From Saprospiraceae bacterium (GTDB taxonomy: Bacteria; Bacteroidota; Bacteroidia; Flavobacteriales_C; GCA-002722245), in NCBI GenBank assembly GCA_047631875.1, contig JBLIAZ010000001.1:1-41276 (forward strand): a stretch of 41,276 nt of DNA, read 5' to 3'. The stretch's first letter is position 1, and each line of letters starts with the position of its first letter. Both the position numbers and the translations under genes were made by a program. Below, piece after piece: positions 163 to 27,418 of this stretch. The notes beneath the pieces were generated by a model. The model was not told the DNA's origin. It saw only the letters and a list, made by a program, of their open reading frames with translations, and did not search any database.

Positions 163-2193
163 TTATCCTCTCAATAAAAAAGCAAAATCAAAAGCAACCT
201 CCCTATAATACTCATACCTCCCAGAAGCACCGCCATGTCCAACCTCCATGTTAGTTTTTAGTAACAACAAATTATCATCTGTTTTTAAATCACGCAACTT
301 AGCAACCCATTTTGCGGGTTCAAAATATTGTACTTGAGAATCATGCAGTCCTGTAGTTACTAATAACGAAGGATAGTCTTTAGCCTCCACATTATCATAA
401 GGGCTGTAACTCAACATGTACTCATAGTACTTCTTTTCGTTTGGATTCCCCCATTCATCATACTCACCAGTAGTAAGTGGAATAGTATCATCCAACATGG
501 TCGTCACTACATCCACAAAAGGAACGGCTGCAATCAATGACTTCCATAATTCAGGACGTAAATTCATGACCGCTCCAATCAATAATCCTCCCGCGCTACC
601 ACCTGAACCGTGCAGCTTATCTTTGGCGCAGTATTTTTGCTTCACTAAGTGTTCTCCACAAGAGATAAAATCGGTAAAAGTGTTCATTTTATTGAGCATT
701 TTTCCTTCCTCGTACCAATATCTTCCCATATCTTCCCCTCCTCTGATGTGCGCTATGGCAAACACAAAGCCCCTGTCCAATAAACTTAAACGTGCGGGGC
801 TAAAACTCGGATCAATAACATGACCGTAGGAACCATATCCGTACAGTAATAAGGGTGATTGTCCTTCTACAAATGACTCTTTTTTGTAAACTAATGAAAT
901 TGGAATTTTGGTGCCCTCAGCAGCCGTGGCGTTTATCCTTTCTGTAGCATATTTTGATTCATCGTATCCTCCAATGATTTTTTGCTGCTTTTTAACTTCC
1001 TGAGTTTTTCCCTCGAAATGGTAGTCAAAAATGGTTGACGGAGTCACTAAGCTTGTGTAACCATAGCGAAACAATGGCGTGTCAAATTCCATGTTCACCG
1101 AACCATAAGCCATGTAGGAAGCTGCATCCATTTTAATGTAATGCTCCTCACCATTTTTACTAATGACTTTGAACTGCGATAGTCCTGCGCGCCTTTCCTC
1201 CAAGACCATGAATGCTTTAAAAATTTCAATACCTTCCAACAAAGTATCCTCTCGATGACCAACACTTTCACCCCAATTCTCTTTGCTTGTTTTGTCCAAA
1301 TCACAAGTCAACAAACGGAAATTTTTTGCTTCCCAATTGGACACAATGTAAAATTTATCCTCAAAGTGATCCACACTGTATTCATGGTCATCTTCCCGTT
1401 TTTGAAACATGGAAAAATCCGACAGTGAATCATTCGCATCAATGAAATTATATTCTGTTGAGGTAGAACTGTATGAACCTATGAATATAAATTGCTTGGA
1501 TTTACATTTATAAACCGAGGAAATAAACGCCTCCTGCTTTTCGTGAAATACCATGATGTCTTCTTTACTTGATGTGCCCAATTCGTGTCTGAACACTTTA
1601 TTAGACCGCAAAGTGGTTTCATCTTTTTGCACATAAAACAAGTACTTCCCATCGTTTGACCAAGTAAAACCTCCTGAAGAATTTGAGATTTCGTCGTTCA
1701 ACAACTCCCCGGTGTTCATGTTTTTAAAGCAAATCGTGTACAATCGCCTAGAAACAAAATCTACCGAGTATGCTATAATTTCACTCACCGGATTTACAGA
1801 AAGTTTAGCCACGTTACAATAATCCTTTCCTGTTGCAAGGACATTGTTGTTCAACAAAAGCTCCTCGTCATTATCCAATGATCCTTTTTTTCTGCAGAAT
1901 AATGGATACTCTTTGCCTTCTTCAAAACGATTGTAGTAATAGTATCCGTCCAATAAATAAGGAACAGACTCTTCTGTTTTGTCAAGCCGTCCAACAATTT
2001 CATTGTAAAGCTCTTCTTGCAGCCCCTCCGTGCCTTTCATACAATGTTCACTGTATGAATTTTCACGATTCAAGTAATCAATCACTTCAGGATTTTCCCT
2101 TTCATTCAACCAGTAATATGGGTCAATTCGAGTGTGTTCGTGAACATTTAACTCTTTATATCTTTTATTGCATCCGGGTACTTTCATCGTCAA
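163..2193 (-). CDS. ptrB: Oligopeptidase B / protease II (S9A prolyl oligopeptidase family)
   Basis: 676-aa ORF. The N-terminus HEHTRIDPYYWLNERENPEVIDYLNRENSY is typical of protease II. It has a beta-propeller-length middle region, the catalytic Ser motif GGSAGGLL and a C-terminal GHGG. Confidence 0.85.
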   Translation of the reverse strand: MTMKVPGCNKRYKELNVHEHTRIDPYYWLNERENPEVIDYLNRENSYSEHCMKGTEGLQEELYNEIVGRLDKTEESVPYLLDGYYYYNRFEEGKEYPLFCRKKGSLDNDEELLLNNNVLATGKDYCNVAKLSVNPVSEIIAYSVDFVSRRLYTICFKNMNTGELLNDEISNSSGGFTWSNDGKYLFYVQKDETTLRSNKVFRHELGTSSKEDIMVFHEKQEAFISSVYKCKSKQFIFIGSYSSTSTEYNFIDANDSLSDFSMFQKREDDHEYSVDHFEDKFYIVSNWEAKNFRLLTCDLDKTSKENWGESVGHREDTLLEGIEIFKAFMVLEERRAGLSQFKVISKNGEEHYIKMDAASYMAYGSVNMEFDTPLFRYGYTSLVTPSTIFDYHFEGKTQEVKKQQKIIGGYDESKYATERINATAAEGTKIPISLVYKKESFVEGQSPLLLYGYGSYGHVIDPSFSPARLSLLDRGFVFAIAHIRGGEDMGRYWYEEGKMLNKMNTFTDFISCGEHLVKQKYCAKDKLHGSGGSAGGLLIGAVMNLRPELWKSLIAAVPFVDVVTTMLDDTIPLTTGEYDEWGNPNEKKYYEYMLSYSPYDNVEAKDYPSLLVTTGLHDSQVQYFEPAKWVAKLRDLKTDDNLLLLKTNMEVGHGGASGRYEYYREVAFDFAFLLRG

Positions 2194-2352
2194 ATTTCTT
2201 TCTCTTAGAAGTGCAATTTATTAACAATTTACAATACCTGAGCCCTTGGCTGTAGGGAGTAACAAACAAAATTAGAAACTTATTAACATTGCTCGATTTT
2301 TTATTTACGGAACACATTGTATCTTGTTCCCGCAAGTAGGACCAATTAAGCA

Positions 2353-2580
2353 TTGATTATTAACTTATTGTTGATTATGAATACGATTTACACCAAAGAA
2401 GAACTTGACTCTGAGCTAAAGTCTTTAAAGGCGAAGCGACTTACTGTACATAATAAAAGGAAGGACTTGTTGCAAAAATACAGCGCAAAACAAACGAAAA
2501 CACTAAACTCCGCAAGTGCCATGCACGACCTTGACAGGAAAATAGAAGACTTGGAGAGGAAGCTTGAAATATTATTTTAG
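2353..2580 (+). CDS. Small hypothetical coiled-coil protein (more likely ATG start at 2377, 67 aa)
   Basis: ORF only. It is charged and heptad-like (KIEDLERKLEILF) with no recognisable family. Confidence 0.3.
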   Translation: MIINLLLIMNTIYTKEELDSELKSLKAKRLTVHNKRKDLLQKYSAKQTKTLNSASAMHDLDRKIEDLERKLEILF

Positions 2581-2641
2581 CTCGCCTTTAACTCAAACAA
2601 AAGCAAAAAAGAAGACCAAGTGAATCCTGCAAAATTCACCT

Positions 2642-3289
2642 TTAATCGTACTTCTTTATTAATCCAAAATCAAAAGGCGTCCAGTAGCAAGCTTTCAGTT
2701 CGCTTTCTTTGAACGCTATATTAACCCAAGAATTACAAGTTTTAAAGCAAGAATAACTTCCATTTGCTTTGTAAAAATTATCATTGTAGGAGTACCCAGC
2801 CTCAGGTATGTACATCTTTTGATTATCCTCAGACAGCTTAAAGGAATTAAGAATATAATTGTTCAATTTATTCAGTTGAAACTCATTAAGCTCCACCTTA
2901 GTCCAGTCGTCTTTCACTTCCTTGTACCTGGTCAAATGCATCAGTGTTGAGCTATTCAAAAACATGGCTTTAAAAGCATTCTGAAAAGTTAATTCGCCCC
3001 ACGTTGGGGTATTTAAGTAAAAGTTTTCATCACCCCAACCAAAGGAAATATAGTCTTCACCTTCCTTGTACCTTATCCCCGATAGCAAGCTGGAATTAAT
3101 GTCTTCTCGGGGGATTACCACATCCAAATGAACTCCATTTGTATTTAGATAAACGACCTTGTTAGCAATAGAATAACCCTCCTTGTCATTTACAGTAACA
3201 TACATCATCAAGTATGCACAACTAAAATACGCGATTGGAAAAGCTAATACGACAGCAACTCCTATAAATACTTTCTTAAGAATTTTCAT
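2642..3289 (-). CDS. DUF2459/TIGR02117-like membrane-anchored conserved hypothetical protein
   Basis: 215 aa with an N-terminal TM helix. Motifs NGVHLDVVIP, FGWGDENFY and CFKTCNSWVN match what I recall of the DUF2459 family. Confidence 0.55.
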   Translation of the reverse strand: MKILKKVFIGVAVVLAFPIAYFSCAYLMMYVTVNDKEGYSIANKVVYLNTNGVHLDVVIPREDINSSLLSGIRYKEGEDYISFGWGDENFYLNTPTWGELTFQNAFKAMFLNSSTLMHLTRYKEVKDDWTKVELNEFQLNKLNNYILNSFKLSEDNQKMYIPEAGYSYNDNFYKANGSYSCFKTCNSWVNIAFKESELKACYWTPFDFGLIKKYD

Positions 3290-3353
3290 TTAATGTAATG
3301 ATCTCAGCATAAAAGGTCTATTTTTAAACATAAGGTAGTTATTTTTAAGGCGT

Positions 3354-6146
3354 ATGACCAAACACTTTCTTTTTATTGTTTCCGTTTTTGTGCTGTCTTT
3401 GAAGTCCACAGCCTCAGCTCCTGACATCATCAACTTCACAACCAAAGAGTATAAAAGCCATTCTATAAATTACTGCTTCACCCAGGACAGTAGCGGTGTC
3501 ATGTACATCGGTAATGCTTACGGTTTGCTGGAATACGATGGTCAAACTTGGCGGAAAATTGGCCTTTCGGATGGGAAAAGTGCCTTGTCATTGGACATTG
3601 ATAAAAATGGGAGAATATACATTGGCTCCTCCTCGGAATTTGGTTATTTAAAAAAAAATGCATCGGGATTAAATGAATATGTTTCCTTAAAATCAAAGCT
3701 TCCAAAACAAGACATCAACGAAATCCTTGATTTAATTTGCGTTGATGACCAAGTGTATTTCAGAAGTTTATATACTGTTTATTGTTATAAAAACAACGAA
3801 GTCATTGAGCTCACCGAACATAGTAAAGATCAGTTAATTTATTACTTAGGGATTTATCAAGAAAAAATAAGAGCCTCAAAACAGGGGGTCGGAATTTTAA
3901 CCTTTCCCTTGTCAAAACACAGCATAAGCAATAAAGGCATTAAGGACGTTGAGATCCGAGATGTCCTTTCATTCGGAAGAAGTCAAACCTTGTTACTTAC
4001 AAGCAATCAAATTATCAGCGAAAACAATTCTTCTCGATTTGAAGAAGCGAACAAGAAATTAAAAAATGTAGAAATTTCCTGTGCTTTAACACTTAACGAA
4101 CATGAATTTTTAATTGGCACTGTCAACAAAGGCCTTTTTCATTTAAACACCGAAGGCGAAATAATTAGCAATTTTAACATGAACACAGGTTTACAGGACA
4201 ATTTTATCCACGACTTGTTTTTAGACAACTCGGGAAATATTTGGTTAGCGTACAATAATGGCGTGGGACTGTTAAAATGGAAATCACCAGTCAGGTACAT
4301 TCCTCCATCAATGGGCATTGAAGGAATGGGGTATTGTGCGCTGGTAAAAGGAGACACGTTATTTGCAGGCACTTCCAATGGTTTATATTACTTACCCAAC
4401 TGGGAAATCAGTCTTAAAAAACAGCAAAAATTTACACCTATAACTGGCATCAATGGCATCATCAATGACCTTAAATTACACAAAGGAAAACTGATTGCAT
4501 GTCAAGCAGCTGAGGTTTATCAAATTGAAGCTGGGTCCGCGGTTAGGATTTCAAACGGGTCTTGGTTTGGGTCTTGGACTTGGAAAAAACACCATCAAAA
4601 TGAAAACAAAGCTTACGTTGGAACATACGTTGGTATTTCTAATTACGAATGGAAAAACAAAACTTGGAAATTTACAAACCACGTAAAAGGTTTTAGTGAG
4701 TCTTCAAGAATGTTCGAGGTAGACAAACGAGGAGTTTTTTGGATTGTTCAGGGAAACAAAGGATTGTACAGGTTAATGCTAAACCAAAGTAGGGACAGCG
4801 CCGTATCAGTAGTGAATTATACTGACATCATGAATGTCAGTTCTCAAGATCATTTTAATGATATTTTTAGTTACCATGATTCGATTTTTGTATCAAGTTA
4901 CGGACATACTTATTACATTAAAGAAGACTCTTTGGTTCCATTAGCAAGTTTTGAAAATCTGGGAGCAAAATCTCACAGGATAAGAAAACACAAACAAGAC
5001 GGACTCTATGCAATATATGACGACCAAGCTCACATCTTGAACAATTCTACAGGTGTTTGGGAAGTTCAAAACTCACCTGTTTCATTTTTGAAATCGTACT
5101 TGGTAGGAAGCGCAGAATTCTTTTATGAAGTTTCTGAAAACACTTATTTCATTGGCACACAAGATGGATTTGCCACGTATACCCCTAAAAATATTGGGAC
5201 AACTTCTGAAACACCTTGCTTAATCAGAGGGATTGAATTACTTAATCCACATGGAGATTCTTTGATTTTTAACAGCAAACCTGTTGGAATCCAAGAGTTT
5301 TTATACGAAAATAACAACATCAGGATTTCGTACACTATTCCCTTATATGGCAACAATAAACAAATTTCTTACGAAACAAGGTTGTTTAAAAATGGAAAAG
5401 CCATGCACCAGTGGCAGCAAGTCCAGGAAGTAAACTTCAAGGAATATACTAACTTAAAAGAAGCGACTTACACTTTCAAAGTACGGGCAAAAAAAGGTGA
5501 TGAAGTGGCTGGAAGCACTGCGTTCAAGTTTATAATTTCACCTCCTTGGTACAGGACAACTTTCATGAATTTAATTTATTTCTTGTTATTTGTTGCAGGA
5601 ATATATTTGGTCATCAACTTGTTTCAAAAACAAAAAAAGAAACTTGAACTGGAAAATAAAAAAGAAATAGAAATCAAGGAAAAATTGCACAAAGCTGAAA
5701 CAATTGCCTTGGAGTTAAAAAGCAAAGAAAATGAGTTGGCATACCTCGCCTTAACCTTTACACAAAAAAAGGATTTGTTGTCAAGCCTTACTTCACAACT
5801 TGATAAAATTTCAAAGGAACTTTCCCACTCCGATCAAATTAAATTCAGGTCAGTAAAAACTGCCATTTCTAACAACCTTGACAACGAGAGTAACTGGGAA
5901 AATTTTCAAGTGCATTTTGATGAAAAAAACGACAACTTTTTTCAGAAAATTAAGCAAAAGGAAAAACGGATGAACGAATCCTATTTGCTTTTTTGCTCGT
6001 ACGTTCGAATGGGAAAATCCAACAAAGAAATTGCAGAACTCCTAAACATTTCTGTTGCTGCCGTTGAAAAACGTAAGTACCGTTTAAAGAAAAAATGGGA
6101 CTTACCAGACGACACTAGTTTCACAGAATACTTGAGGAATTTGTAA
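3354..6146 (+). CDS. Transmembrane one-component regulator: signal peptide, two-component-regulator beta-propeller repeats, Y_Y_Y domain, TM helix, coiled coil and C-terminal LuxR-type HTH
   Basis: 930 aa. It has an N-terminal signal sequence, propeller-like repeats (NGRIYIGS, GNIWLAYNNG) and a Y_Y_Y-like block (YTFKVRAKKGDEVAG). A TM helix (LIYFLLFVAGIYLVINLF) follows, then a LuxR HTH (KSNKEIAELLNISVAAVEKRKYRLKKKW). No kinase or receiver domain. Confidence 0.8.
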   Translation: MTKHFLFIVSVFVLSLKSTASAPDIINFTTKEYKSHSINYCFTQDSSGVMYIGNAYGLLEYDGQTWRKIGLSDGKSALSLDIDKNGRIYIGSSSEFGYLKKNASGLNEYVSLKSKLPKQDINEILDLICVDDQVYFRSLYTVYCYKNNEVIELTEHSKDQLIYYLGIYQEKIRASKQGVGILTFPLSKHSISNKGIKDVEIRDVLSFGRSQTLLLTSNQIISENNSSRFEEANKKLKNVEISCALTLNEHEFLIGTVNKGLFHLNTEGEIISNFNMNTGLQDNFIHDLFLDNSGNIWLAYNNGVGLLKWKSPVRYIPPSMGIEGMGYCALVKGDTLFAGTSNGLYYLPNWEISLKKQQKFTPITGINGIINDLKLHKGKLIACQAAEVYQIEAGSAVRISNGSWFGSWTWKKHHQNENKAYVGTYVGISNYEWKNKTWKFTNHVKGFSESSRMFEVDKRGVFWIVQGNKGLYRLMLNQSRDSAVSVVNYTDIMNVSSQDHFNDIFSYHDSIFVSSYGHTYYIKEDSLVPLASFENLGAKSHRIRKHKQDGLYAIYDDQAHILNNSTGVWEVQNSPVSFLKSYLVGSAEFFYEVSENTYFIGTQDGFATYTPKNIGTTSETPCLIRGIELLNPHGDSLIFNSKPVGIQEFLYENNNIRISYTIPLYGNNKQISYETRLFKNGKAMHQWQQVQEVNFKEYTNLKEATYTFKVRAKKGDEVAGSTAFKFIISPPWYRTTFMNLIYFLLFVAGIYLVINLFQKQKKKLELENKKEIEIKEKLHKAETIALELKSKENELAYLALTFTQKKDLLSSLTSQLDKISKELSHSDQIKFRSVKTAISNNLDNESNWENFQVHFDEKNDNFFQKIKQKEKRMNESYLLFCSYVRMGKSNKEIAELLNISVAAVEKRKYRLKKKWDLPDDTSFTEYLRNL

Positions 6147-6222: not shown

Positions 6223-6230
6223 TTGGGTAA

Positions 6231-6322
6231 TCTTTAGGAGTGGTTAGTAGCTTTTCACAAAGTCAAAACCTGAGAAATATCCTTTGAACCTGAATTGGTT
6301 AGTACCAACGTAGGAAAAAGAA
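6231..6322 (+). promoter_or_regulatory. TPP (THI-box) riboswitch
   Basis: ggagtgg...cctgagaaatatcctttgaacctgaattggttagtaccaacgtaggaaa matches the conserved TPP aptamer core (CUGAGA; ACCUGAUcUGGuUAaUACCAgCGUAGGgAA). It lies directly upstream of thiS-thiC. Confidence 0.85.
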
Positions 6323-6393
6323 GAGTCCAATTTCGGGCTGATATTTTCAACCCCTTTAGCATTACTTGTACTTAAAACTATTGAACAAGGCGT

Positions 6394-6606: not shown

Positions 6607-8475
<1,869 letters not shown>

Positions 8476-20966: not shown

Positions 20967-21443
20967 TTAGGAAGCTTTTATTCCTTGAGGTGGTTTCCTT
21001 TTTTTTATAACTCTTCTTTTTCCGCTTTCATTGTACGAATCTGAACTCTTATTTTTTTTGTCCCTTTTCCAAAATTTAAACGAAAAAGAACGTTTTTTTG
21101 AAGTAGTAGAACCATATGAATCTTTTCCTTCCTTTACCATTTTTCTTGAAGACGAGCTTGAATAGCTATCCTTAAAGTTCAAACCACTTCGCTTTCTGGA
21201 AGAGGAAGAATAACTATCATAGTAATTCAACGATCTTCTTCTGCGAGGTGCGGAAGCATAACTGTCCCCATAGTTATTCCGCTTTGCTTTTTTCGATTTT
21301 GAAGAAGTCGATTTTGCATACGCATCATGATGACTTTTTTGTTTTGGTGAATTAGAAAACCCAAAAGCATCATTGAATTTTGTGCTTTGACAGCCAACAA
21401 TGGCAATAAGACTTACAATTAAGATGAATATTTTTTTTACCAA
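20967..21443 (-). CDS. Highly basic, Ser/Tyr-rich repeat lipoprotein (TTG start)
   Basis: 158 aa with a lipoprotein signal (IAIVGCQS). About six degenerate D-[SA]-Y-x-S...[KR][KR] repeats follow. No in-frame ATG could give the signal peptide. Confidence 0.6.
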   Translation of the reverse strand: MVKKIFILIVSLIAIVGCQSTKFNDAFGFSNSPKQKSHHDAYAKSTSSKSKKAKRNNYGDSYASAPRRRRSLNYYDSYSSSSRKRSGLNFKDSYSSSSSRKMVKEGKDSYGSTTSKKRSFSFKFWKRDKKNKSSDSYNESGKRRVIKKRKPPQGIKAS

Positions 21444-22166: not shown

Positions 22167-23369
22167 ATGTTTTTCGAATCGTACAACTCTTTCATTACCA
22201 TCCTCCTACTGGTTGGCTTATACCAACTAGCCAAATTATTATGGAATAACGTTGTTCTTAAAAACCTGCTGCTTCTTTTAAGTTCATCTGTAGTATTGTT
22301 GACAATCATCAAAGAACACACATTTTATTGCTTATTAGGATTATCAGTTTTAATTTACTTTTTAGGGTTGTTTTTTTCGAAGAAGAAAGCGAGGACAGGT
22401 TTCGCAACTACTGTTGCAGTTTTAGTATGCGCATACGCTATTCGAAGTTTCCCCTTACTACAAAACATCATATCTAACTCTGTACTTGACTTCCTAAACA
22501 AACCAATACTCTCGGTTCAAAAAATAGGTTTATCCTATATTTTATTCAGGATGATACATTGGCTTGTTGATAGCTACAAGAAAAAAATTGTTGACTACCA
22601 GTTTTTGACCTTCATCAATTACATACTGTTTTTTCCAAGCTTCCTAGCTGGTCCCATTGACACCTATAATAATTTTCAATATTATGTTGCTAAAAAAAGT
22701 AGAAAATTAGATTCACGGTTATTTTTTTCGGGAATATTTAGAATATTTCTAGGTGCATTTAAAACCCTTTTCCTTGTACCAATGTTAATTGAGATAAGTA
22801 CTGACTACACTTTATTACTTGACGATTACCCTGTAATAGTTGCCCTTACAATAAGTACAATTTGTTATTCTATTTATATTTATCTTGATTTTTCCGGTTA
22901 TTCCGACTTAGCCATTGGATTAGCTTACTTATTTGGAATAAAAACACCTGAAAACTTTAACTCCCCTTACTTGGCAAGAAATATTTCGGAATTTTGGAAA
23001 CGATGGCACATCACCTTTTCCAATTTTTTACGGTTGTACGTTTTTGGATTTTTCAAGCAATTATCTATTCGAGTATTTGGTAAAAAAAAATACTTCTTAG
23101 CAACTGTAGCGCTGTACCTATTAACTTTTTTAGTTTGTGGAGTTTGGCACGGAAGCACCCTCAACTTTATTATGTGGGGTGCATGGCACGGCCTAGGAAT
23201 AAGTATTTACAAATTTTACGACCTGTATTTATACAAAAAACTTCCATATACAAAAACCTCGATATATAAAGTAGTGTCTGTATTGTGTACATTTCTATTT
23301 GTTAGTTATGGCTGGATCTTCTTCCATTACTCCTCAGAACAATTAATTGAAATTTTACAACTGTTGTGA
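22167..23369 (+). CDS. MBOAT-family membrane O-acyltransferase (DltB/AlgI-like, DltB-sized)
   Basis: 400 aa and polytopic. Motifs: GLSYILFRMIHWLVDSY, FFPSFLAGPI, WKRWHITFSNFLRLYVF and the conserved His block CGVWHG. Confidence 0.85.
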   Translation: MFFESYNSFITILLLVGLYQLAKLLWNNVVLKNLLLLLSSSVVLLTIIKEHTFYCLLGLSVLIYFLGLFFSKKKARTGFATTVAVLVCAYAIRSFPLLQNIISNSVLDFLNKPILSVQKIGLSYILFRMIHWLVDSYKKKIVDYQFLTFINYILFFPSFLAGPIDTYNNFQYYVAKKSRKLDSRLFFSGIFRIFLGAFKTLFLVPMLIEISTDYTLLLDDYPVIVALTISTICYSIYIYLDFSGYSDLAIGLAYLFGIKTPENFNSPYLARNISEFWKRWHITFSNFLRLYVFGFFKQLSIRVFGKKKYFLATVALYLLTFLVCGVWHGSTLNFIMWGAWHGLGISIYKFYDLYLYKKLPYTKTSIYKVVSVLCTFLFVSYGWIFFHYSSEQLIEILQLL

Positions 23370-24457
23370 TTAGGTTAAAAGACATATACCGTTTAAAAAA
23401 CATGTCCTGGTTTGGGAAAATGATACTCTTAGTAACAATTGGTTTGTTAGCAGCCTCAAGCATCATTCCCGATCATCAATACAATGCACCTACCAGGCAA
23501 ATTCATGTAATAAACGGACTACACTTTAAGTATGGTGACAAAGCCAAAATCAGTCATTATATACAAAGCATAGTTTCAAACAATGGGTATTTATGCATGG
23601 GAACTTCCGAATCGGGAGACTTAGGCGGGAAAAATTACTTCCACTTTCTAAACAACGCTTCAGTGCTTACTTCAGGGTTTTCATCACTTGCTGGAGCGGG
23701 ACGAACGTGTGGTATTCATGAACCTTGGCTACTTCAGAACAAGGACATCATCAAGGGCTTGAACATAATTTATTACATCAATCCAGTTTATTGGAACACC
23801 GAAATGAATGATGCTTCCCTAGAATATAGCAGTAGGTACTTAAACTATCAATTTGCTAGTTCATACAAAAACAAAAGTTTCAACAGTGAACAATACGTCA
23901 AGGAATATTCAACATTCAATAAATTTAAGCATATCGTAAGCTATACCATTAGAAATGCTAGACGTTCCTATTTTGAAGATTTAAAAGAAACCCTAAACCC
24001 AACAAATTGGGCACGAAAAACGGCAAAAGTTGATATTAATAAAACTCCGCTAAAAATTGATTCAACAAGTGCTATTACTAATTTGGACAGCACTTACAAC
24101 ACTAAAAAAAGTTTTGTAAATAAAGAATGGTTTCGACCTATAGACACGGTAAGTACTTATCGAGACAAAGAACTCACCAGCTTTATCCGCAACTGCAAAT
24201 CTCTTGGAGTTAACCTCACCTTGGTTATGGGTCCTTACAACGAAAAATTCATTTCCAACTATCAGCCATCAAGTTTACAGGCGTATAAACAAACAGTAAA
24301 AAAAATCAGTAACATCGCATTAAATGAAGGAGTACAAATTATTGACTGCACGGATTTATCAAATCAATTTGGTATGTTCGATGACCATCAACATCACTCC
24401 CAATTTGCAGCAAAAAAAATAGCTAACAAAATCAAACTACATGTTTTACAAAAATAA
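23366..24457 (+). CDS. DltD-like (SGNH-like fold) membrane-anchored extracytoplasmic acyl-transfer partner protein
   Basis: 363 aa. GTG 23366 overlaps the MBOAT TGA (GTGA); ATG 23402 is an alternative start. It has an N-terminal anchor helix and, in DltD order, the blocks GTSESGD, LAGAGRT, INPVYW and C-terminal DDHQHH (D-x-x-H). Confidence 0.65.
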   Translation: MIRLKDIYRLKNMSWFGKMILLVTIGLLAASSIIPDHQYNAPTRQIHVINGLHFKYGDKAKISHYIQSIVSNNGYLCMGTSESGDLGGKNYFHFLNNASVLTSGFSSLAGAGRTCGIHEPWLLQNKDIIKGLNIIYYINPVYWNTEMNDASLEYSSRYLNYQFASSYKNKSFNSEQYVKEYSTFNKFKHIVSYTIRNARRSYFEDLKETLNPTNWARKTAKVDINKTPLKIDSTSAITNLDSTYNTKKSFVNKEWFRPIDTVSTYRDKELTSFIRNCKSLGVNLTLVMGPYNEKFISNYQPSSLQAYKQTVKKISNIALNEGVQIIDCTDLSNQFGMFDDHQHHSQFAAKKIANKIKLHVLQK

Positions 24458-24560
24458 ACTCGTCGTTGGATTTCTGATTTTAGCCATTTGTACAATGGCT
24501 ATTTTTCTTTTGATGATTTCTGAGACAACAGAAATAAAATATATTTACGCTGATTTTTAG
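24441..24560 (+). CDS. Unannotated 39-aa single-pass microprotein, DltX-like (C-terminal YIYADF)
   Basis: ATG 24441 to TAG 24558..24560 gives MFYKNKLVVGFLILAICTMAIFLLMISETTEIKYIYADF. It overlaps the upstream CDS by 17 nt. It has a Lys-rich N-terminus, one TM helix, and a C-terminal aromatic-x-Tyr-x-acidic-Phe hexapeptide as in DltX. Confidence 0.5.
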   Translation: MFYKNKLVVGFLILAICTMAIFLLMISETTEIKYIYADF

Positions 24561-24718: not shown

Positions 24719-25297
24719 TTACGCTACAAGCTTAAAATTACCCAACAAGTCACTCCAATTCCAAATGAAATTATCAGTGATATCAGAAATAGCTTTAATG
24801 ATAGTTGGATTTGGTTGATTCATTTTTTGAAAATGATCCACTTGGCATTCGTTCAATCCGTACTTCTGAAAAATTGCTAAGGCCATGATTTTACCCAAAC
24901 CGTCGTTTTGTGAACGATCCAATCCTGCTAAGTAATCTTCGTACATGTTAATTTGACTCAACACCTCATCCTCAGAACGGTCTTCCATGCTTTCAATGAA
25001 TTCGTCGATGATTAAAATCCTCATCCTGTTGTGCTGATCCGTATCGAAATGATCCTTCAAATGATATAAATTGGCGCTAAAAACAATGTATAAAAACCAT
25101 TCTAATTGGTTTTCTTCAATTTCCGGAGAGCATTGTAGCTCGGGCACGTCGTTTAAATAATCCTTTAATATTGGGAAACTTTCCATTGCCAAACCATTGA
25201 TGGTGCTCACAAACACCTGGGCAACGTACTCTTCTTTTAGCCTCTTTTTTCCAAACAATGAAAATACACTCATGGTAACAAGTTTGCGTTTTATCAA
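24719..25297 (-). CDS. Hypothetical cytoplasmic protein (alternative start M9 at 25273)
   Basis: 192-aa acidic ORF with no recognisable motifs. Same strand as the M23 peptidase gene upstream of it. Confidence 0.55.
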   Translation of the reverse strand: MIKRKLVTMSVFSLFGKKRLKEEYVAQVFVSTINGLAMESFPILKDYLNDVPELQCSPEIEENQLEWFLYIVFSANLYHLKDHFDTDQHNRMRILIIDEFIESMEDRSEDEVLSQINMYEDYLAGLDRSQNDGLGKIMALAIFQKYGLNECQVDHFQKMNQPNPTIIKAISDITDNFIWNWSDLLGNFKLVA

Positions 25298-25383: not shown

Positions 25384-26370
25384 TTAATTAGATACTTTAA
25401 GTTCTTCCCCGACCACTAAAAAGTGATTTCTTTGAATGCCATTCAGCTCACAAATATCCTTGACCCTTACGCCATATTCGTTGGCAATTTTGTACATGTA
25501 ATCACCACGTCTCACTTTATGATAGGCTCCTCCTGGCTGGTAACCAATGAACCCAAACCGTGTTTTTTTAAGCATCAAAGTATCCCCTTTTAGCTTGTGA
25601 TTTTGAAAATCAATGAATGCTTCAGGATTAATCGCCTTTCCCTTGAAACGAGTCTCTAAGTGTAAATGACTTCCTCGTGAGGCTCCACTTTGCCCACCTT
25701 TTCCAATGGCAGTACCGGGATCAACCATTTCTCCCTCCTTTACCATGAACCTACTCAAGTGAGCGTAAATAGTTTCCAAGCCATTGAAATGCCTGATGAT
25801 TACTACCCTGCCATATCCTCCTTGCCATCTTGCCAACCTTACTTTTCCTCTAAAAGCTGCACGCACAGTATCACCCACTAGTAATCCAATGTCAATCCCG
25901 TTGTGCATTTTTCCATTTCTCCAACCAAATTTTGAAGTAACTCGTCCTACAAAAGGAGATGAATACCCACAGTTACTTACTTTGTCAGTTAAGTATAAGA
26001 ACAAGCAACTGTCCTCCTTGCTCAGTTTGTCTTTATATGGATGTGAAAGTTTAGTATTCCAGGAATGATAAAATTCATCAGCTGGATAAGGGCTTTCTGG
26101 TTCGAGTGTATGCCTTAAGTAAAAGCTATTTACCCTGTCATTTACTAACCTTAAATATACAGGATTACTTGGGTGGTCTAGTAAACTGTCTATCATTAGC
26201 ACCAAACCGTCTTCGTCTAATGCTTCAATTTTTATTTTGAAATCCAAGTAATTTACTGTGTCAAAATCTTGACTTTCAAAACTGGTGCTTTCCAAGAATT
26301 TACCACTGAACAATGTACCCACAAAGGTTAATAGCAAACCGGCAAATAGCATGTTTTTATGTGACATCAA
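25384..26370 (-). CDS. M23-family metallopeptidase with C-terminal LysM domain
   Basis: 328 aa with a signal/anchor helix and the M23 motifs HNGIDI and SHLHLE. A LysM-like tail is present (YHKVRRGDYMYKIANEYGVRVKDICELNGI). Confidence 0.85.
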   Translation of the reverse strand: MMSHKNMLFAGLLLTFVGTLFSGKFLESTSFESQDFDTVNYLDFKIKIEALDEDGLVLMIDSLLDHPSNPVYLRLVNDRVNSFYLRHTLEPESPYPADEFYHSWNTKLSHPYKDKLSKEDSCLFLYLTDKVSNCGYSSPFVGRVTSKFGWRNGKMHNGIDIGLLVGDTVRAAFRGKVRLARWQGGYGRVVIIRHFNGLETIYAHLSRFMVKEGEMVDPGTAIGKGGQSGASRGSHLHLETRFKGKAINPEAFIDFQNHKLKGDTLMLKKTRFGFIGYQPGGAYHKVRRGDYMYKIANEYGVRVKDICELNGIQRNHFLVVGEELKVSN

Positions 26371-26482: not shown

Positions 26483-27418
26483 TCAAAACTTCAGGAGCAA
26501 AACAACAAGCATCAAAATAAGGATGGCCAGCTCCTTTGCAATCTTTTTAGAAAATGCTCTGATCGCCAGTTGGTACAACACTAACAAGGGCAAATTGATG
26601 CAAAGCAGAATTTGAGGGACAGTCATCGAGTTTTCAATAAGTAAAAACCCACTCAACAAAAACAAACTAAGCCACAGCCAAACCTTATAATACACCCTGA
26701 TTTTTATGTTAAGCTGCCCTGAAACCTTGACGAAATGATTCGCTGATAACACAAAAACCAAGAGCAACAACCCTGAAGACACCTGGGCCAATATTCCTTT
26801 TACCAGTAAGCCTTTTGGGACGAAATTAAACTTAATGAGCTCCATAAAAGAGTCTGCCTGATCAGTAAAAATAAAATAACACCACTTTGCAAACAACATG
26901 AAAAAGAAACCAAGCAAGACCGCAATACAACCCCGCCAAGTGTTGACTTTGACATTCACAAGTGCCACATAGGTGAAAGGCAATGCCACAATAAATAAAG
27001 GGTTTATCATGGTTAACAATCCTGATATTACACCCATTTCAAATTCTGAAATGATGTTTTCTGTTTGGTTAAAACCTTGCTGAATTTTATTTATCAACAT
27101 CAACAAAAGAAAAAATGCCAATACAAACTGAAAAGAAACTGAGCTGTACTCAAGCCCACTCATGGCCATCACCGAGAGAAACAAGGCCGAAAAATCGTTG
27201 TTCCCCACCAGTTTGGTGGAACGTAAAACTTGATTGAAATAAAAAGACACCAATCCCATCAACAAATAAAAGGCAATCAGCTCCAGGCTAACAGACATAA
27301 AAATTCCCGAAGAAAGCAAATTAGTATGCAGGGCCCAAAACATGGAACACAGTAACCACACCCCACTTAATGCAATGGTAAAAATAGCTTCTCGCTTAAA
27401 TATGAGGTTGAATAGCAA
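26483..27418 (-). CDS. Polytopic integral membrane protein of unknown function
   Basis: 311 aa, about 8-9 hydrophobic helices, no catalytic motifs recognised. Confidence 0.65.
   Translation of the reverse strand: MLFNLIFKREAIFTIALSGVWLLCSMFWALHTNLLSSGIFMSVSLELIAFYLLMGLVSFYFNQVLRSTKLVGNNDFSALFLSVMAMSGLEYSSVSFQFVLAFFLLLMLINKIQQGFNQTENIISEFEMGVISGLLTMINPLFIVALPFTYVALVNVKVNTWRGCIAVLLGFFFMLFAKWCYFIFTDQADSFMELIKFNFVPKGLLVKGILAQVSSGLLLLVFVLSANHFVKVSGQLNIKIRVYYKVWLWLSLFLLSGFLLIENSMTVPQILLCINLPLLVLYQLAIRAFSKKIAKELAILILMLVVLLLKF

Follow-up and report, generated by a model that had tools for sequence, protein, structure and literature searches.

Positions 24441 to 24560 of the window (the whole 41,276-nt stretch of DNA analysed here) very probably hold a real gene that is the third of an operon and is translationally coupled; its product would be an acyl-Tyr shuttle like DltX. 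The first two genes of this operon code for an MBOAT acyltransferase and a DltD-like SGNH transferase (Table 1). The micro-ORF almost certainly is a gene, the evidence being its C-terminal motif and the conservation of that motif. This gene is real, evolves under purifying selection and is strictly co-inherited with the MBOAT/DltD-like pair. By analogy with DltX, the microprotein most likely bears acyl groups on a Tyr near its end.

Table 1. Features of the operon end and of the micro-ORF (window coordinates).
Feature	Coordinates	Strand	Details or basis
MBOAT acyltransferase, 400 aa, DltB-length, 'split' type	22167..23369	+	Pfam MBOAT, E 7e-27
DltD-like SGNH transferase, 363 aa from GTG 23366	23366..24457	+	Pfam DltD, fold
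Micro-ORF, putative DltX-like acyl-shuttle microprotein	24441..24560	+	39 aa + stop
Single transmembrane helix, codons 8-26, VVGFLILAICTMAIFLLMI	24462..24518	+	Hydropathy, flank charges, AF2
Hairpin then T-run, codons 14-24 of the micro-ORF; incidental	24481..24511	+	8 bp, 3 G-C pairs
C-terminal hexapeptide Y34-I-Y36-A-D-F39	24540..24557	+	Y36/F39 invariance, codon usage
Tyr36 codon TAC, predicted acyl-accepting residue	24546-24548	+	
Stop TAG directly after C-terminal Phe39	24558-24560	+	

Topology and conservation of the micro-ORF

The ATG of the micro-ORF lies 17 nt inside the 3' end of the DltD-like coding sequence but in another frame (an offset of 1075 nt, i.e., 1 mod 3), and the 39 codons up to the TAG encode MFYKNKLVVGFLILAICTMAIFLLMISETTEIKYIYADF. 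The coordinates, frame and length given in the first-pass annotation were re-derived and all match. Residues 8-26 form the best 19-residue hydrophobic stretch (mean Kyte-Doolittle hydropathy 2.95), preceded by an N-terminal flank of net charge +2 and followed by a 13-residue tail, SETTEIKYIYADF, of net charge -2, which bears out the earlier description of a Lys-rich N-terminus, one helix and a polar tail of 13 residues. The AF2 model of the microprotein is a single helix with a core pLDDT of ~92. The same flank polarity (N-flank +1 or more, C-flank -1 or less) was found in 56/56 members of the microprotein family, and within the helix L23 is invariant in the 56 aligned sequences while the L23-L24 pair is conserved family-wide. 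The micro-ORF had been described as unannotated, and indeed public copies of the same sequence leave it uncalled, as does the genome of the nearest relative. Called homologues in protein databases number 55, plus 39 cluster representatives, all of them unnamed or 'hypothetical'.

Forty loci were compared: that of the window, those of 38 GTDB Bacteroidota genomes and one metagenome contig, with GC contents of 0.33-0.64. Every one of them has an ORF of 36-39 aa that starts with an ATG overlapping the DltD-like stop (typically by 4-32 nt) and encodes a product in which a basic N-terminus is followed by one transmembrane helix and an acidic tail ending in x-[ILV]-Y-[AG]-x-F-stop. The micro-ORF had been noted as placed after the MBOAT gene rather than before it; it sits behind the DltD-like gene in all 40. 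Throughout the 40 loci and the 56 aligned family sequences, Tyr36 and the terminal Phe39 are invariant and A37 is nearly so; Tyr36 and Phe39 are the sole invariant residues outside the helix. At the first position of the hexapeptide the loci have Y, F or T (Thr in 6), and 3 database representatives have Cys.

The codons behind these residues vary synonymously, with TAT (23 loci) or TAC (16) for Tyr36, TTT (29) or TTC (10) for Phe39 and all four codons in use for Ala37 (GCC 15, GCG 8, GCA 8, GCT 7). The stop keeps a fixed place across the loci and its codon varies between TAA, TAG and TGA. The comparison with the nearest relative gives a pN of 0.19 and a pS of 0.71 (dN/dS ~0.10), the differences are distributed 14/3/17 over the three codon positions, and the DNA 3' of the micro-ORF is unalignable. 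The comparison of synteny and codon-level conservation, which had been set beforehand, thus came out in favour of the gene, with Tyr and Phe kept throughout. Within the window, [FYW]xYxxF-stop occurs at 1 of 4,523 six-frame stops. The same pattern ends 36 of the 38,073 stops in 38 related loci, where it marks 32 orthologous micro-ORFs, 1 fused MBOAT and 3 chance matches. Two other motif-stops in one locus (L010) were judged to be chance; they close short frames, and the one inspected (end 998) is without a transmembrane helix.

Could 24441..24560 nevertheless be a chance reading frame in a 3' untranslated region that closes the operon, with the hairpin and T-run acting as an intrinsic terminator? 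Frames this long are no rarity in the window, which has 126 ATG-ORFs of 39 codons or more against ~84 in shuffled sequence. The earlier claim that such a frame is uncommon thus does not hold, and public annotations of the sequence pass the micro-ORF over. The hairpin named in the first-pass annotation is also present within the ORF (24481-24501, then TTTTTCTTTT; MFE -10.1 kcal/mol, z -2.2). However, it has no counterpart in the nearest relative, any terminator-like motif within the ORF was found in just 4/39 loci and at differing positions, and terminator-like sites in the region occur at chance rate (2 observed vs 2.4 expected). The T-run just codes for I-F-L-L of the transmembrane helix. Because the hairpin is not conserved and an Rfam search of the region gave no family match, we rejected the terminator or RNA-element reading. 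A chance frame is likewise at odds with a protein kept in 40/40 loci under synonymous codon turnover and with a fixed stop position. Stops and frameshifts in the frame, or loss of the hexapeptide, had been named as signs against the gene; the frame is free of the former, the hexapeptide is retained and the hairpin is instead the part that is not conserved. Judged by sequence comparison, the chance frame is already refuted, and we give it next to no credence.

The partner proteins and the acyl donor

The MBOAT aligns along its full length with the DltB model TIGR04091 (191 bits, the 375-bit cutoff not being reached) and its best solved structures are those of DltB (8jem, 6bug; E ~1e-26). Both His281 (in FWKRWH) and the catalytic residue His328 (in WHG) are retained, and they are conserved in 11/11 aligned cassette MBOATs. 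Its C-terminus, ...EILQLL, is without FxYxxF, and the motif is equally missing from 38/38 orthologous cassette MBOATs with sequence, of which the untruncated ones have ~394-408 aa. The four fused MBOATs examined (three of ~458-495 aa, the fourth annotated as 382 aa within a longer frame) all end in F[IL]YF[QDR]F. There is one FXYXXF-type motif per system, and in all cassette loci it is on the microprotein, not on the MBOAT.

In the DltD-like protein a membrane anchor at the N-terminus precedes an extracytoplasmic domain; the protein matches Pfam DltD with 31 bits (cutoff 22.7). The sites G-T-S81-E and D340-x-x-H343 are invariant in 20 sequences and are predicted to provide a Ser/Asp/His triad. 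Using its AF2 model (pLDDT 83.5) in a fold search, the top 12 PDB matches were all DltD (3bma, 6pfx, 6o93, 7dxm), other SGNH esterases ranking after them; a PDB sequence search with the DltD-like profile retrieved no DltD, the fold search alone doing so. The GTG of this gene overlaps the MBOAT stop (GTGA). Since Y8, which lies upstream of the publicly called ATG, is invariant, the sequence favours a start at GTG 23366.

The MBOAT and DltD-like genes are the only conserved neighbours of the micro-ORF in the 39 loci compared. Neither AMP-binding nor PP-binding (carrier) protein genes were found in the 41-kb window, and in none of the 39 loci are DltA/DltC conserved within ~6 kb. We therefore rank an acyl-CoA donor, probably acetyl-CoA, above a D-alanyl carrier protein. 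The first-pass annotation had proposed that the micro-ORF supplies the third component of a Dlt-type acyl shuttle. This holds for the B/D/X core, to which 'Dlt-type' must be limited because DltA and DltC are absent; the micro-ORF itself does not match the DltX models of Pfam or NCBIfam.

Proposed shuttle mechanism and its alternatives

The conservation of the microprotein, the motif-less MBOAT and the DltD fold of the second gene product together support the reading of the microprotein as a free-standing acyl-Tyr shuttle. The FXYXXF motif has been defined as an acyl shuttle, and acyl-Tyr was demonstrated for DltX and PatA (PMC12148441); the DltX C-terminus occupies the DltD pocket (PMC13653941). 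By analogy with DltX, and with the C-terminal segment of fused bacterial MBOATs such as PatA, we infer that a complex forms, that the Tyr is acylated as an intermediate and that transfer runs in the following direction. The MBOAT, the DltD-like SGNH transferase and the microprotein would be produced from a translationally coupled operon, the microprotein crossing the membrane once from a cytoplasmic N-terminus to a periplasmic C-terminus, where a flexible acidic tail would end in Y-I-Y36-A-D-F-COOH. The microprotein would pack onto the MBOAT. Tyr36 would then enter the extracytoplasmic funnel of the MBOAT and take an acyl group from a cytoplasmic donor, with His328 as the catalyst. The tail may next swing to the DltD-like active site and hand the acyl group to Ser81, from where the DltD-like enzyme would move it onto an envelope polymer.

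Two alternatives, the first of them on the donor step, have to be weighed. The cassette might perform bona fide D-alanylation, with DltA and DltC encoded elsewhere in the genome and D-Ala delivered to a Bacteroidota envelope polymer. The full-length match of the MBOAT to the DltB model, its best PDB matches and the DltD-like fold of the SGNH partner are in keeping with this, and Gram-negative dlt-like clusters are known, e.g., on an Enterobacter cloacae plasmid where the micro-ORF ends in FEYQKF; those of Dickeya and Pectobacterium have been cited as well (PMC5541007). The absence of AMP-binding and carrier-protein genes described above speaks against it. In a canonical dlt cluster (L041) and in that of E. 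cloacae, the A and C genes directly adjoin those for B and D. In BLAST comparisons the window MBOAT scored 171 and 148 bits with fused MBOATs, at least as high as with DltBs (115-137 bits), and an NJ tree without support values placed it among the fused clade. The columns that separate fused from DltB-type MBOATs are mosaic in the cassette clade. We consider D-alanylation unlikely on balance.

The microprotein might instead be real and bind the pair in a purely structural, assembly or regulatory role, carrying no acyl-Tyr, while the acyl group takes another route. DltX itself was considered a possible regulator before 2023 (PMC5541007, PMC11035591), and the conserved helix residues L23 and L24 fit a packing function. 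Yet outside the helix, invariance is confined to the Tyr of the shuttle motif and the terminal Phe, the partner MBOAT lacks the motif in exactly those systems in which a separate peptide provides it, and Tyr is the acyl carrier according to the biochemistry of DltX and PatA (PMC12148441). A solely structural role thus appears improbable, more so than D-alanylation, and the acyl-Tyr shuttle is the reading that we prefer.

A more specific version of the shuttle reading can be put forward tentatively: it is possible that the cassette works on its own as an acyl-CoA-dependent machine for envelope acylation, and that its shuttle arose by independent fission of the C-terminal helix of a fused MBOAT, in parallel to DltX and not orthologous with it. 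Free-standing acyl-Tyr shuttle microproteins would in that case be a recurrent solution beyond D-alanylation and Gram-positive bacteria, and a DltD-fold enzyme would acylate a Gram-negative envelope polymer.

Acyl-Tyr shuttling as a mechanism is a recent finding, established only between 2023 and 2025. The cassette places a putative free-standing shuttle peptide in Gram-negative Bacteroidota, within a minimal three-gene module devoid of DltA and DltC that occurs in no fewer than 38 species-level genomes and, in environmental data, in over 100 MBOAT sequence clusters. It offers a compact system in which to address donor choice, the polymer modified by a DltD-fold enzyme and the interconversion of split and fused shuttles. 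Annotations would also need correction, as the gene is missed here and in the nearest relative, its called homologues remain unnamed or 'hypothetical' and the window MBOAT is publicly labelled 'AlgI' (MFT6715393.1).

Relation to DltX and to known acyl shuttles

Against Pfam and NCBIfam, the window micro-ORF gave no DltX match even at E<=10, the only matches being OppC_N and LegC2C7 at chance level; membership of the curated DltX family is therefore not supported. Among 56 microprotein relatives, 12 match Pfam DltX (PF12459) in the C-terminal register but below threshold, with a best E-value of 9e-4, and two members scanned individually scored 14-16 bits (gathering cutoff 25). Five of the 56 have a below-threshold match to DUF6358 (PF19885; 24 bits vs 28.4), which aligns nearly the whole 37-aa protein with model positions 1-36 of 61. 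A PDB search with the microprotein profile retrieved no DltX chain, just chance transmembrane matches to NDH subunit 2. Using hhalign, the family profile aligned end-to-end with DltX of Limosilactobacillus oris (probability 78%, score 24.3), the score being mostly contributed by the transmembrane helix; full shuffles scored 8.1 +/- 1.9 and tail-only shuffles 20.2 +/- 1.2 (maximum 25.1). The last 31 residues of a fused MBOAT from Bacteroides finegoldii also aligned end-to-end (21.3), while the C-termini of three other fused MBOATs and the E. cloacae microprotein (10.9) were not above negative controls. Consequently, the hhalign matches to L. oris DltX and B. finegoldii do not separate DltX orthology from independent fission.

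The microprotein resembles DltX, the product of the first gene of the Firmicute dltXABCD operon, as a single-pass microprotein whose N-terminus is basic and whose extracytoplasmic C-terminus is a hexapeptide that contains an invariant Tyr and a terminal Phe. The FIYNEF ending given for DltX in the first-pass annotation was verified in the proteins of L. oris and L. plantarum. Both kinds of gene occur together with those for a DltD or DltD-like protein and for a DltB-length MBOAT without a motif of its own, and the conserved helix Leu and the Tyr are 13 residues apart in L. oris DltX and in the Bacteroidota family alike. They differ in gene order, which is B-D-X in Bacteroidota, the micro-ORF following the dltD-like gene, whereas the DltX gene precedes dltA. 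The Bacteroidota protein is also shorter (36-39 aa vs ~45-50), has a motif, x-[ILV]-Y-[AG]-x-F, with a looser first position (Y/F/T, few C), scores under the Pfam gathering threshold and is encoded in loci with no linked DltA or DltC. Finally, the cassette has Gram-negative hosts, the Bacteroidota, in which teichoic acids are absent. The DltX mechanism has been presented as a Gram-positive feature (PMC13653941), and MBOAT/SGNH pathways other than Dlt are said to be without a DltX-like microprotein (PMC12148441).

Fused MBOATs (PatA, AlgI-type and others) have the same motif at an extracytoplasmic C-terminus beside the partner SGNH enzyme. They carry FXYXXF on two extra transmembrane helices, whereas in the cassette it is on a separate one-helix protein encoded downstream of the SGNH gene, and the MBOAT, whose similarity to fused MBOATs is about equal to that to DltB, is ~70 residues shorter than the fused type (~458-495 aa). 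The E. cloacae plasmid pGX1Z-1L (NZ_CP071862.1), which also has a Gram-negative host, encodes DltD, a 40-aa 'hypothetical protein', an MBOAT, an AMP-binding protein and an ACP in the order D-X-B-A-C. There the micro-ORF shares 4 nt with the DltD gene at its stop and codes for a peptide ending in F-E-Y-Q-K-F, and the MBOAT is short (372 aa) and motif-less like that of the cassette, with Asn in place of the WHG His. Unlike the cassette, pGX1Z-1L has DltA-like and DltC-like genes, and its microprotein falls off the family profile. The AT3-SGNH peptidoglycan O-acetyltransferase OatA likewise passes an acyl group from a Tyr on an extracytoplasmic loop to an SGNH domain (PMC12148441), but it does so with an unrelated membrane domain (AT3) and as a single fused polypeptide.

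Conservation of the small ORF behind the DltD-like gene

The micro-ORF opens at ATG 24441, 17 nt inside the DltD-like CDS (23366..24457) and in another frame, and runs for 39 codons to TAG 24558..24560, exactly as described in the first-pass annotation. A hydrophobic 19-mer of its product (residues 8-26; mean Kyte-Doolittle 2.95) is flanked by an N-terminal segment of net charge +2 and a 13-residue tail of net charge -2. The frame had also been considered unusually long for such DNA, a view that does not hold: the window contains 126 ATG-initiated ORFs of at least 39 codons versus approximately 84 in shuffled sequences, and ORF length alone is consequently no evidence. The feature of the micro-ORF that exceeds chance is its ending: of the 4,523 six-frame stops in the window, a single one, its own, shows the pattern [FYW]xYxxF-stop.

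A word-indexed search with the DltD-like protein returned 20 database relatives, from which a profile was built and used to search the GTDB species-representative genomes. This yielded 38 loci (DltD-like identity to the window protein 31-42%; GC 0.33-0.64), nearly all from MAGs labelled Bacteroidota (Flavobacteriales, Cryomorphaceae, Crocinitomicaceae, Bacteroidales) and two carrying other labels (Lentimonas, Comamonadaceae). A small ORF ending [YF][ILV]Y[AG]xF-stop lies directly 3' of the DltD-like gene in 32 of them, and the six apparent exceptions, with a GC of 0.53-0.64, carry one ending T-L-Y-A-[TGN]-F-stop. Including the window and its nearest relative, in which the DltD-like protein is 63% identical, the micro-ORF is present in 40 of the 40 loci examined. 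The products (36-39 aa) share a basic N-terminus, a single hydrophobic helix and an acidic tail; Y36 and F39 are invariant, while L23, L24, I32 and A37 are nearly so. The ATG typically overlaps the DltD-like stop by 4-32 nt, offsets of -20 and -4 being the commonest. In locus L004, the DltD-like frame overruns the micro-ORF start by 86 nt, which suggests that the frame has shifted or that the C-terminus of DltD is altered.

Codon usage at the conserved positions varies freely, be it at the Tyr (TAT 23, TAC 16), the Ala (GCC 15, GCG 8, GCA 8, GCT 7) or the Phe (TTT 29, TTC 10), and the stop is fixed in position yet is TAA, TAG or TGA. Compared with the nearest relative, the micro-ORF exhibits 14, 3 and 17 differences at codon positions 1, 2 and 3, with a pN of 0.19 and a pS of 0.71, hence a dN/dS of about 0.10; the DNA 3' of its stop is unalignable. 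The synteny and codon-level comparison proposed in the first-pass annotation thus came out in favour of a coding frame, the opposite of stops, frameshifts or conservation of a hairpin alone. The hairpin itself (24481-24501, followed by a T-run) is real but confined to the window. Terminator-like motifs of any kind occur inside the micro-ORF in 4 of 39 loci, at differing positions, and such sites in the micro-ORF region number 2 versus 2.4 expected by chance; an Rfam scan of this region matched no family.

A profile search of a 5.8-billion-protein collection revealed 55 called homologues of 36-40 aa, all unnamed or "hypothetical protein". Among 1.84 billion cluster representatives scanned exhaustively with HMMER, 39 matched, of 33-44 aa except for one 83-aa form, P0093. 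The first 37 residues of the latter are those of the micro-ORF of locus L011, followed by read-through (...DDIVYLYANFWVTKFSPY...), so that the motif is no longer C-terminal; the sequence may be in error here, or the stop codon may have been lost naturally. No record of the window's own product was found in protein databases, the interval is empty in the public gene calls of identical copies of the locus, and the micro-ORF of the nearest relative is likewise uncalled. In the window MAG, the MBOAT (MFT6715393.1) is named "AlgI" and the DltD-like protein (MFT6715394.1) "hypothetical".

Features of the window and of the comparison loci
Feature	Location	Strand	Remarks
MBOAT	window 22167..23369	+	Pfam MBOAT, E 7e-27
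DltD-like gene	window 23366..24457	+	Pfam DltD, 31 bits (threshold 22.7)
Micro-ORF	window 24441..24560	+	Translation: MFYKNKLVVGFLILAICTMAIFLLMISETTEIKYIYADF
M23 peptidase with LysM domain	window 25384-26370	-	Not a conserved cassette neighbour in other genomes
Three ORFs near the cassette	window 20967-21443, 24719-25297, 26483-27418	-	No Pfam match; not conserved beside the cassette elsewhere
TPP riboswitch (RF00059)	window 6226-6333	+	66.5 bits; upstream of thiamine biosynthesis cluster
Thiamine cluster	window 6616 to ~12572		ThiC (6616-8475), two TMP-TENI genes, ThiD-like, ThiG, ThiH-like
Micro-ORF region of L004	7109-7222		
Fused MBOAT of L011	7288-8706	+	472 aa, ending ...GSQFIYFQF-stop; directly 3' of cassette micro-ORF (end 7228)
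DltX ORF, Limosilactobacillus oris CP014788.1 (L041)	~1780-1926	+	Overlaps annotated dltA start (1886)
IS-flanked cluster, E. cloacae plasmid NZ_CP071862.1 (L045)	993-5045		DltD, 40-aa ORF, MBOAT, AMP-binding protein, ACP
Solitary dltB, E. faecalis plasmid NZ_CP124902.1 (L039)	3728-4927		
Solitary dltB, B. mycoides plasmid NZ_CP128142.1 (L040)	3752-4918		

The MBOAT and DltD-like partners

Pfam confirmed the MBOAT/DltD-like pair recognized upstream in the first-pass annotation. These two genes are the only conserved neighbours of the micro-ORF, a DltD-like gene being present in 39 of 39 loci and an MBOAT of about 400 aa in 38, the remaining locus lying at a contig end; all other genes vary. 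The three cassette genes overlap or abut, which suggests that they are translationally coupled. The public start of the DltD-like gene is ATG 23402 (351 aa), whereas GTG 23366 overlaps the MBOAT stop (GTGA); given this overlap and Y8 of the longer form, which lies upstream of the public ATG and is invariant in 20 homologues, the GTG-23366 form is probably correct.

The DltD-like proteins retain G-T-S81-E and D340-x-x-H343 invariantly. In the AF2 model (pLDDT 83.5), an alpha/beta domain follows an N-terminal helix. DltD crystal structures take the first 12 places among the PDB fold matches of this model (E 3e-7 to 1e-5, TM ~0.5), ahead of other SGNH esterases such as PatB. Likewise, the best solved relatives of the window MBOAT are DltB structures, and it aligns over its full length with the DltB model TIGR04091 (191 bits, cutoff 375). 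Cassette MBOATs keep His281 and the catalytic His328 and all end without an FxYxxF motif, whereas all four fused MBOATs examined (the second MBOAT of L011 and plasmid-borne genes of Bacteroides finegoldii, Flammeovirgaceae bacterium and Bacillus thuringiensis) end F[IL]YF[QDR]F. Each system consequently holds one motif, which is carried by the micro-ORF or, in the fused type, by the MBOAT itself. In L011, where a fused MBOAT adjoins the cassette, the split and fused forms are found within one locus.

Relationship to DltX

The FIYNEF ending given for DltX in the first-pass annotation is indeed that of the L. oris protein (...LKTVFYFIIILLLVYLYGYYGAGQEPFIYNEF-stop), itself unannotated. Its frame spans 49 codons from stop to stop, with no ATG, GTG or TTG giving at least 25 aa. 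The microprotein family profile aligned end-to-end with this DltX (hhalign probability 78%, score 24.3), with the same 13-residue spacing between the helix Leu and the Tyr. Full shuffles scored 8.1 +/- 1.9 and tail-only shuffles 20.2 +/- 1.2 (maximum 25.1); most of the score is due to the helix. Pfam DltX matched 12 of the 56 aligned family members in the right register, all below threshold (14-16 bits versus a cutoff of 25 for two scanned individually), and did not match the window micro-ORF. Judged by these scores, the microprotein lies outside the curated DltX family; it probably works like DltX, and homology is possible. The profile matched the C-terminal end of the fused MBOAT from B. finegoldii nearly as well (21.3), while the 40-aa DltX-like ORF of the E. 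cloacae plasmid scored at negative-control level (10.9). The microprotein may therefore have descended from DltX or have arisen by independent fission of a fused MBOAT. Pfam DUF6358 (PF19885) also drew matches from five of the 56 relatives, slightly short of its threshold (24.3 bits versus 28.4); the best of them aligns almost the entire length of a 37-aa protein with model positions 1-36 of 61.

A putative acyl relay and its donor

DltB, the MBOAT of the Dlt pathway, moves D-Ala from DltC onto the invariant Tyr of the C-terminal FXYXXF of DltX, the last residues of which are bound by the catalytic pocket of DltD; PatA and other bacterial MBOATs carry FXYXXF fused on two extra helices and are auto-acetylated from acetyl-CoA (PMC12148441, PMC13653941). 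All the sequence-level requirements of such a relay are present in the cassette: an MBOAT with the catalytic His and without its own motif, a DltD-fold partner with Ser/Asp/His, and a co-inherited N-in/C-out peptide of which the Tyr and the terminal Phe are the sole invariant extracytoplasmic residues. This supports the earlier reading of the micro-ORF as a Dlt-type shuttle component, and leads us to conclude that Tyr36 is probably an acyl carrier linking the MBOAT (His328) with the DltD-like enzyme (Ser81). By inference from the sequences, the partners would form a complex, and the acyl group would pass from His328 to Tyr36 and then to Ser81.

The donor could be supplied by a DltA/DltC pair encoded elsewhere in the genome. 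Neither an AMP-binding (DltA-like) nor a carrier-protein (DltC-like) gene was found within the 41-kb window or as a conserved cassette neighbour among the loci compared, and we consider such an unlinked pair rather unlikely. An acyl-CoA donor, for which we would give about even chances, is favoured because the cassette stands by itself in all loci and because of the BLAST similarity of its MBOAT to fused MBOATs. The window MBOAT scored 171 and 148 bits against fused Bacteroidota MBOATs, no lower than the 115-137 bits obtained with DltBs; the residue-level comparison bearing on the donor gave a mosaic.

The E. cloacae cluster shows that in Proteobacteria, too, dltD can be followed by a micro-ORF, in this case accompanied by A and C. 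Its 40-aa "hypothetical protein" (MMKTAIRLFLLYLLLAITIVAWTSVDDSMSLQLHFEYQKF) ends FEYQKF and overlaps the DltD stop by 4 nt, while in its 372-aa MBOAT an Asn replaces the catalytic His of WHG (WNG). Near the solitary plasmid-borne dltB genes of E. faecalis and B. mycoides, neither dltA, dltC, dltD nor a motif-ending small ORF was found in the stretch fetched.

Non-Dlt MBOAT/SGNH pathways have been described as devoid of a DltX-like microprotein, and the DltX mechanism is treated as Gram-positive (PMC12148441, PMC13653941). In the literature covered, we found no description of a Bacteroidota cassette in the order MBOAT, DltD-like, microprotein; an earlier bioinformatic mention is possible. The cassette shares with DltX systems the logic of the shuttle but differs from them by its gene order, its lack of linked A and C genes, its distinct sequence family and its Gram-negative hosts.
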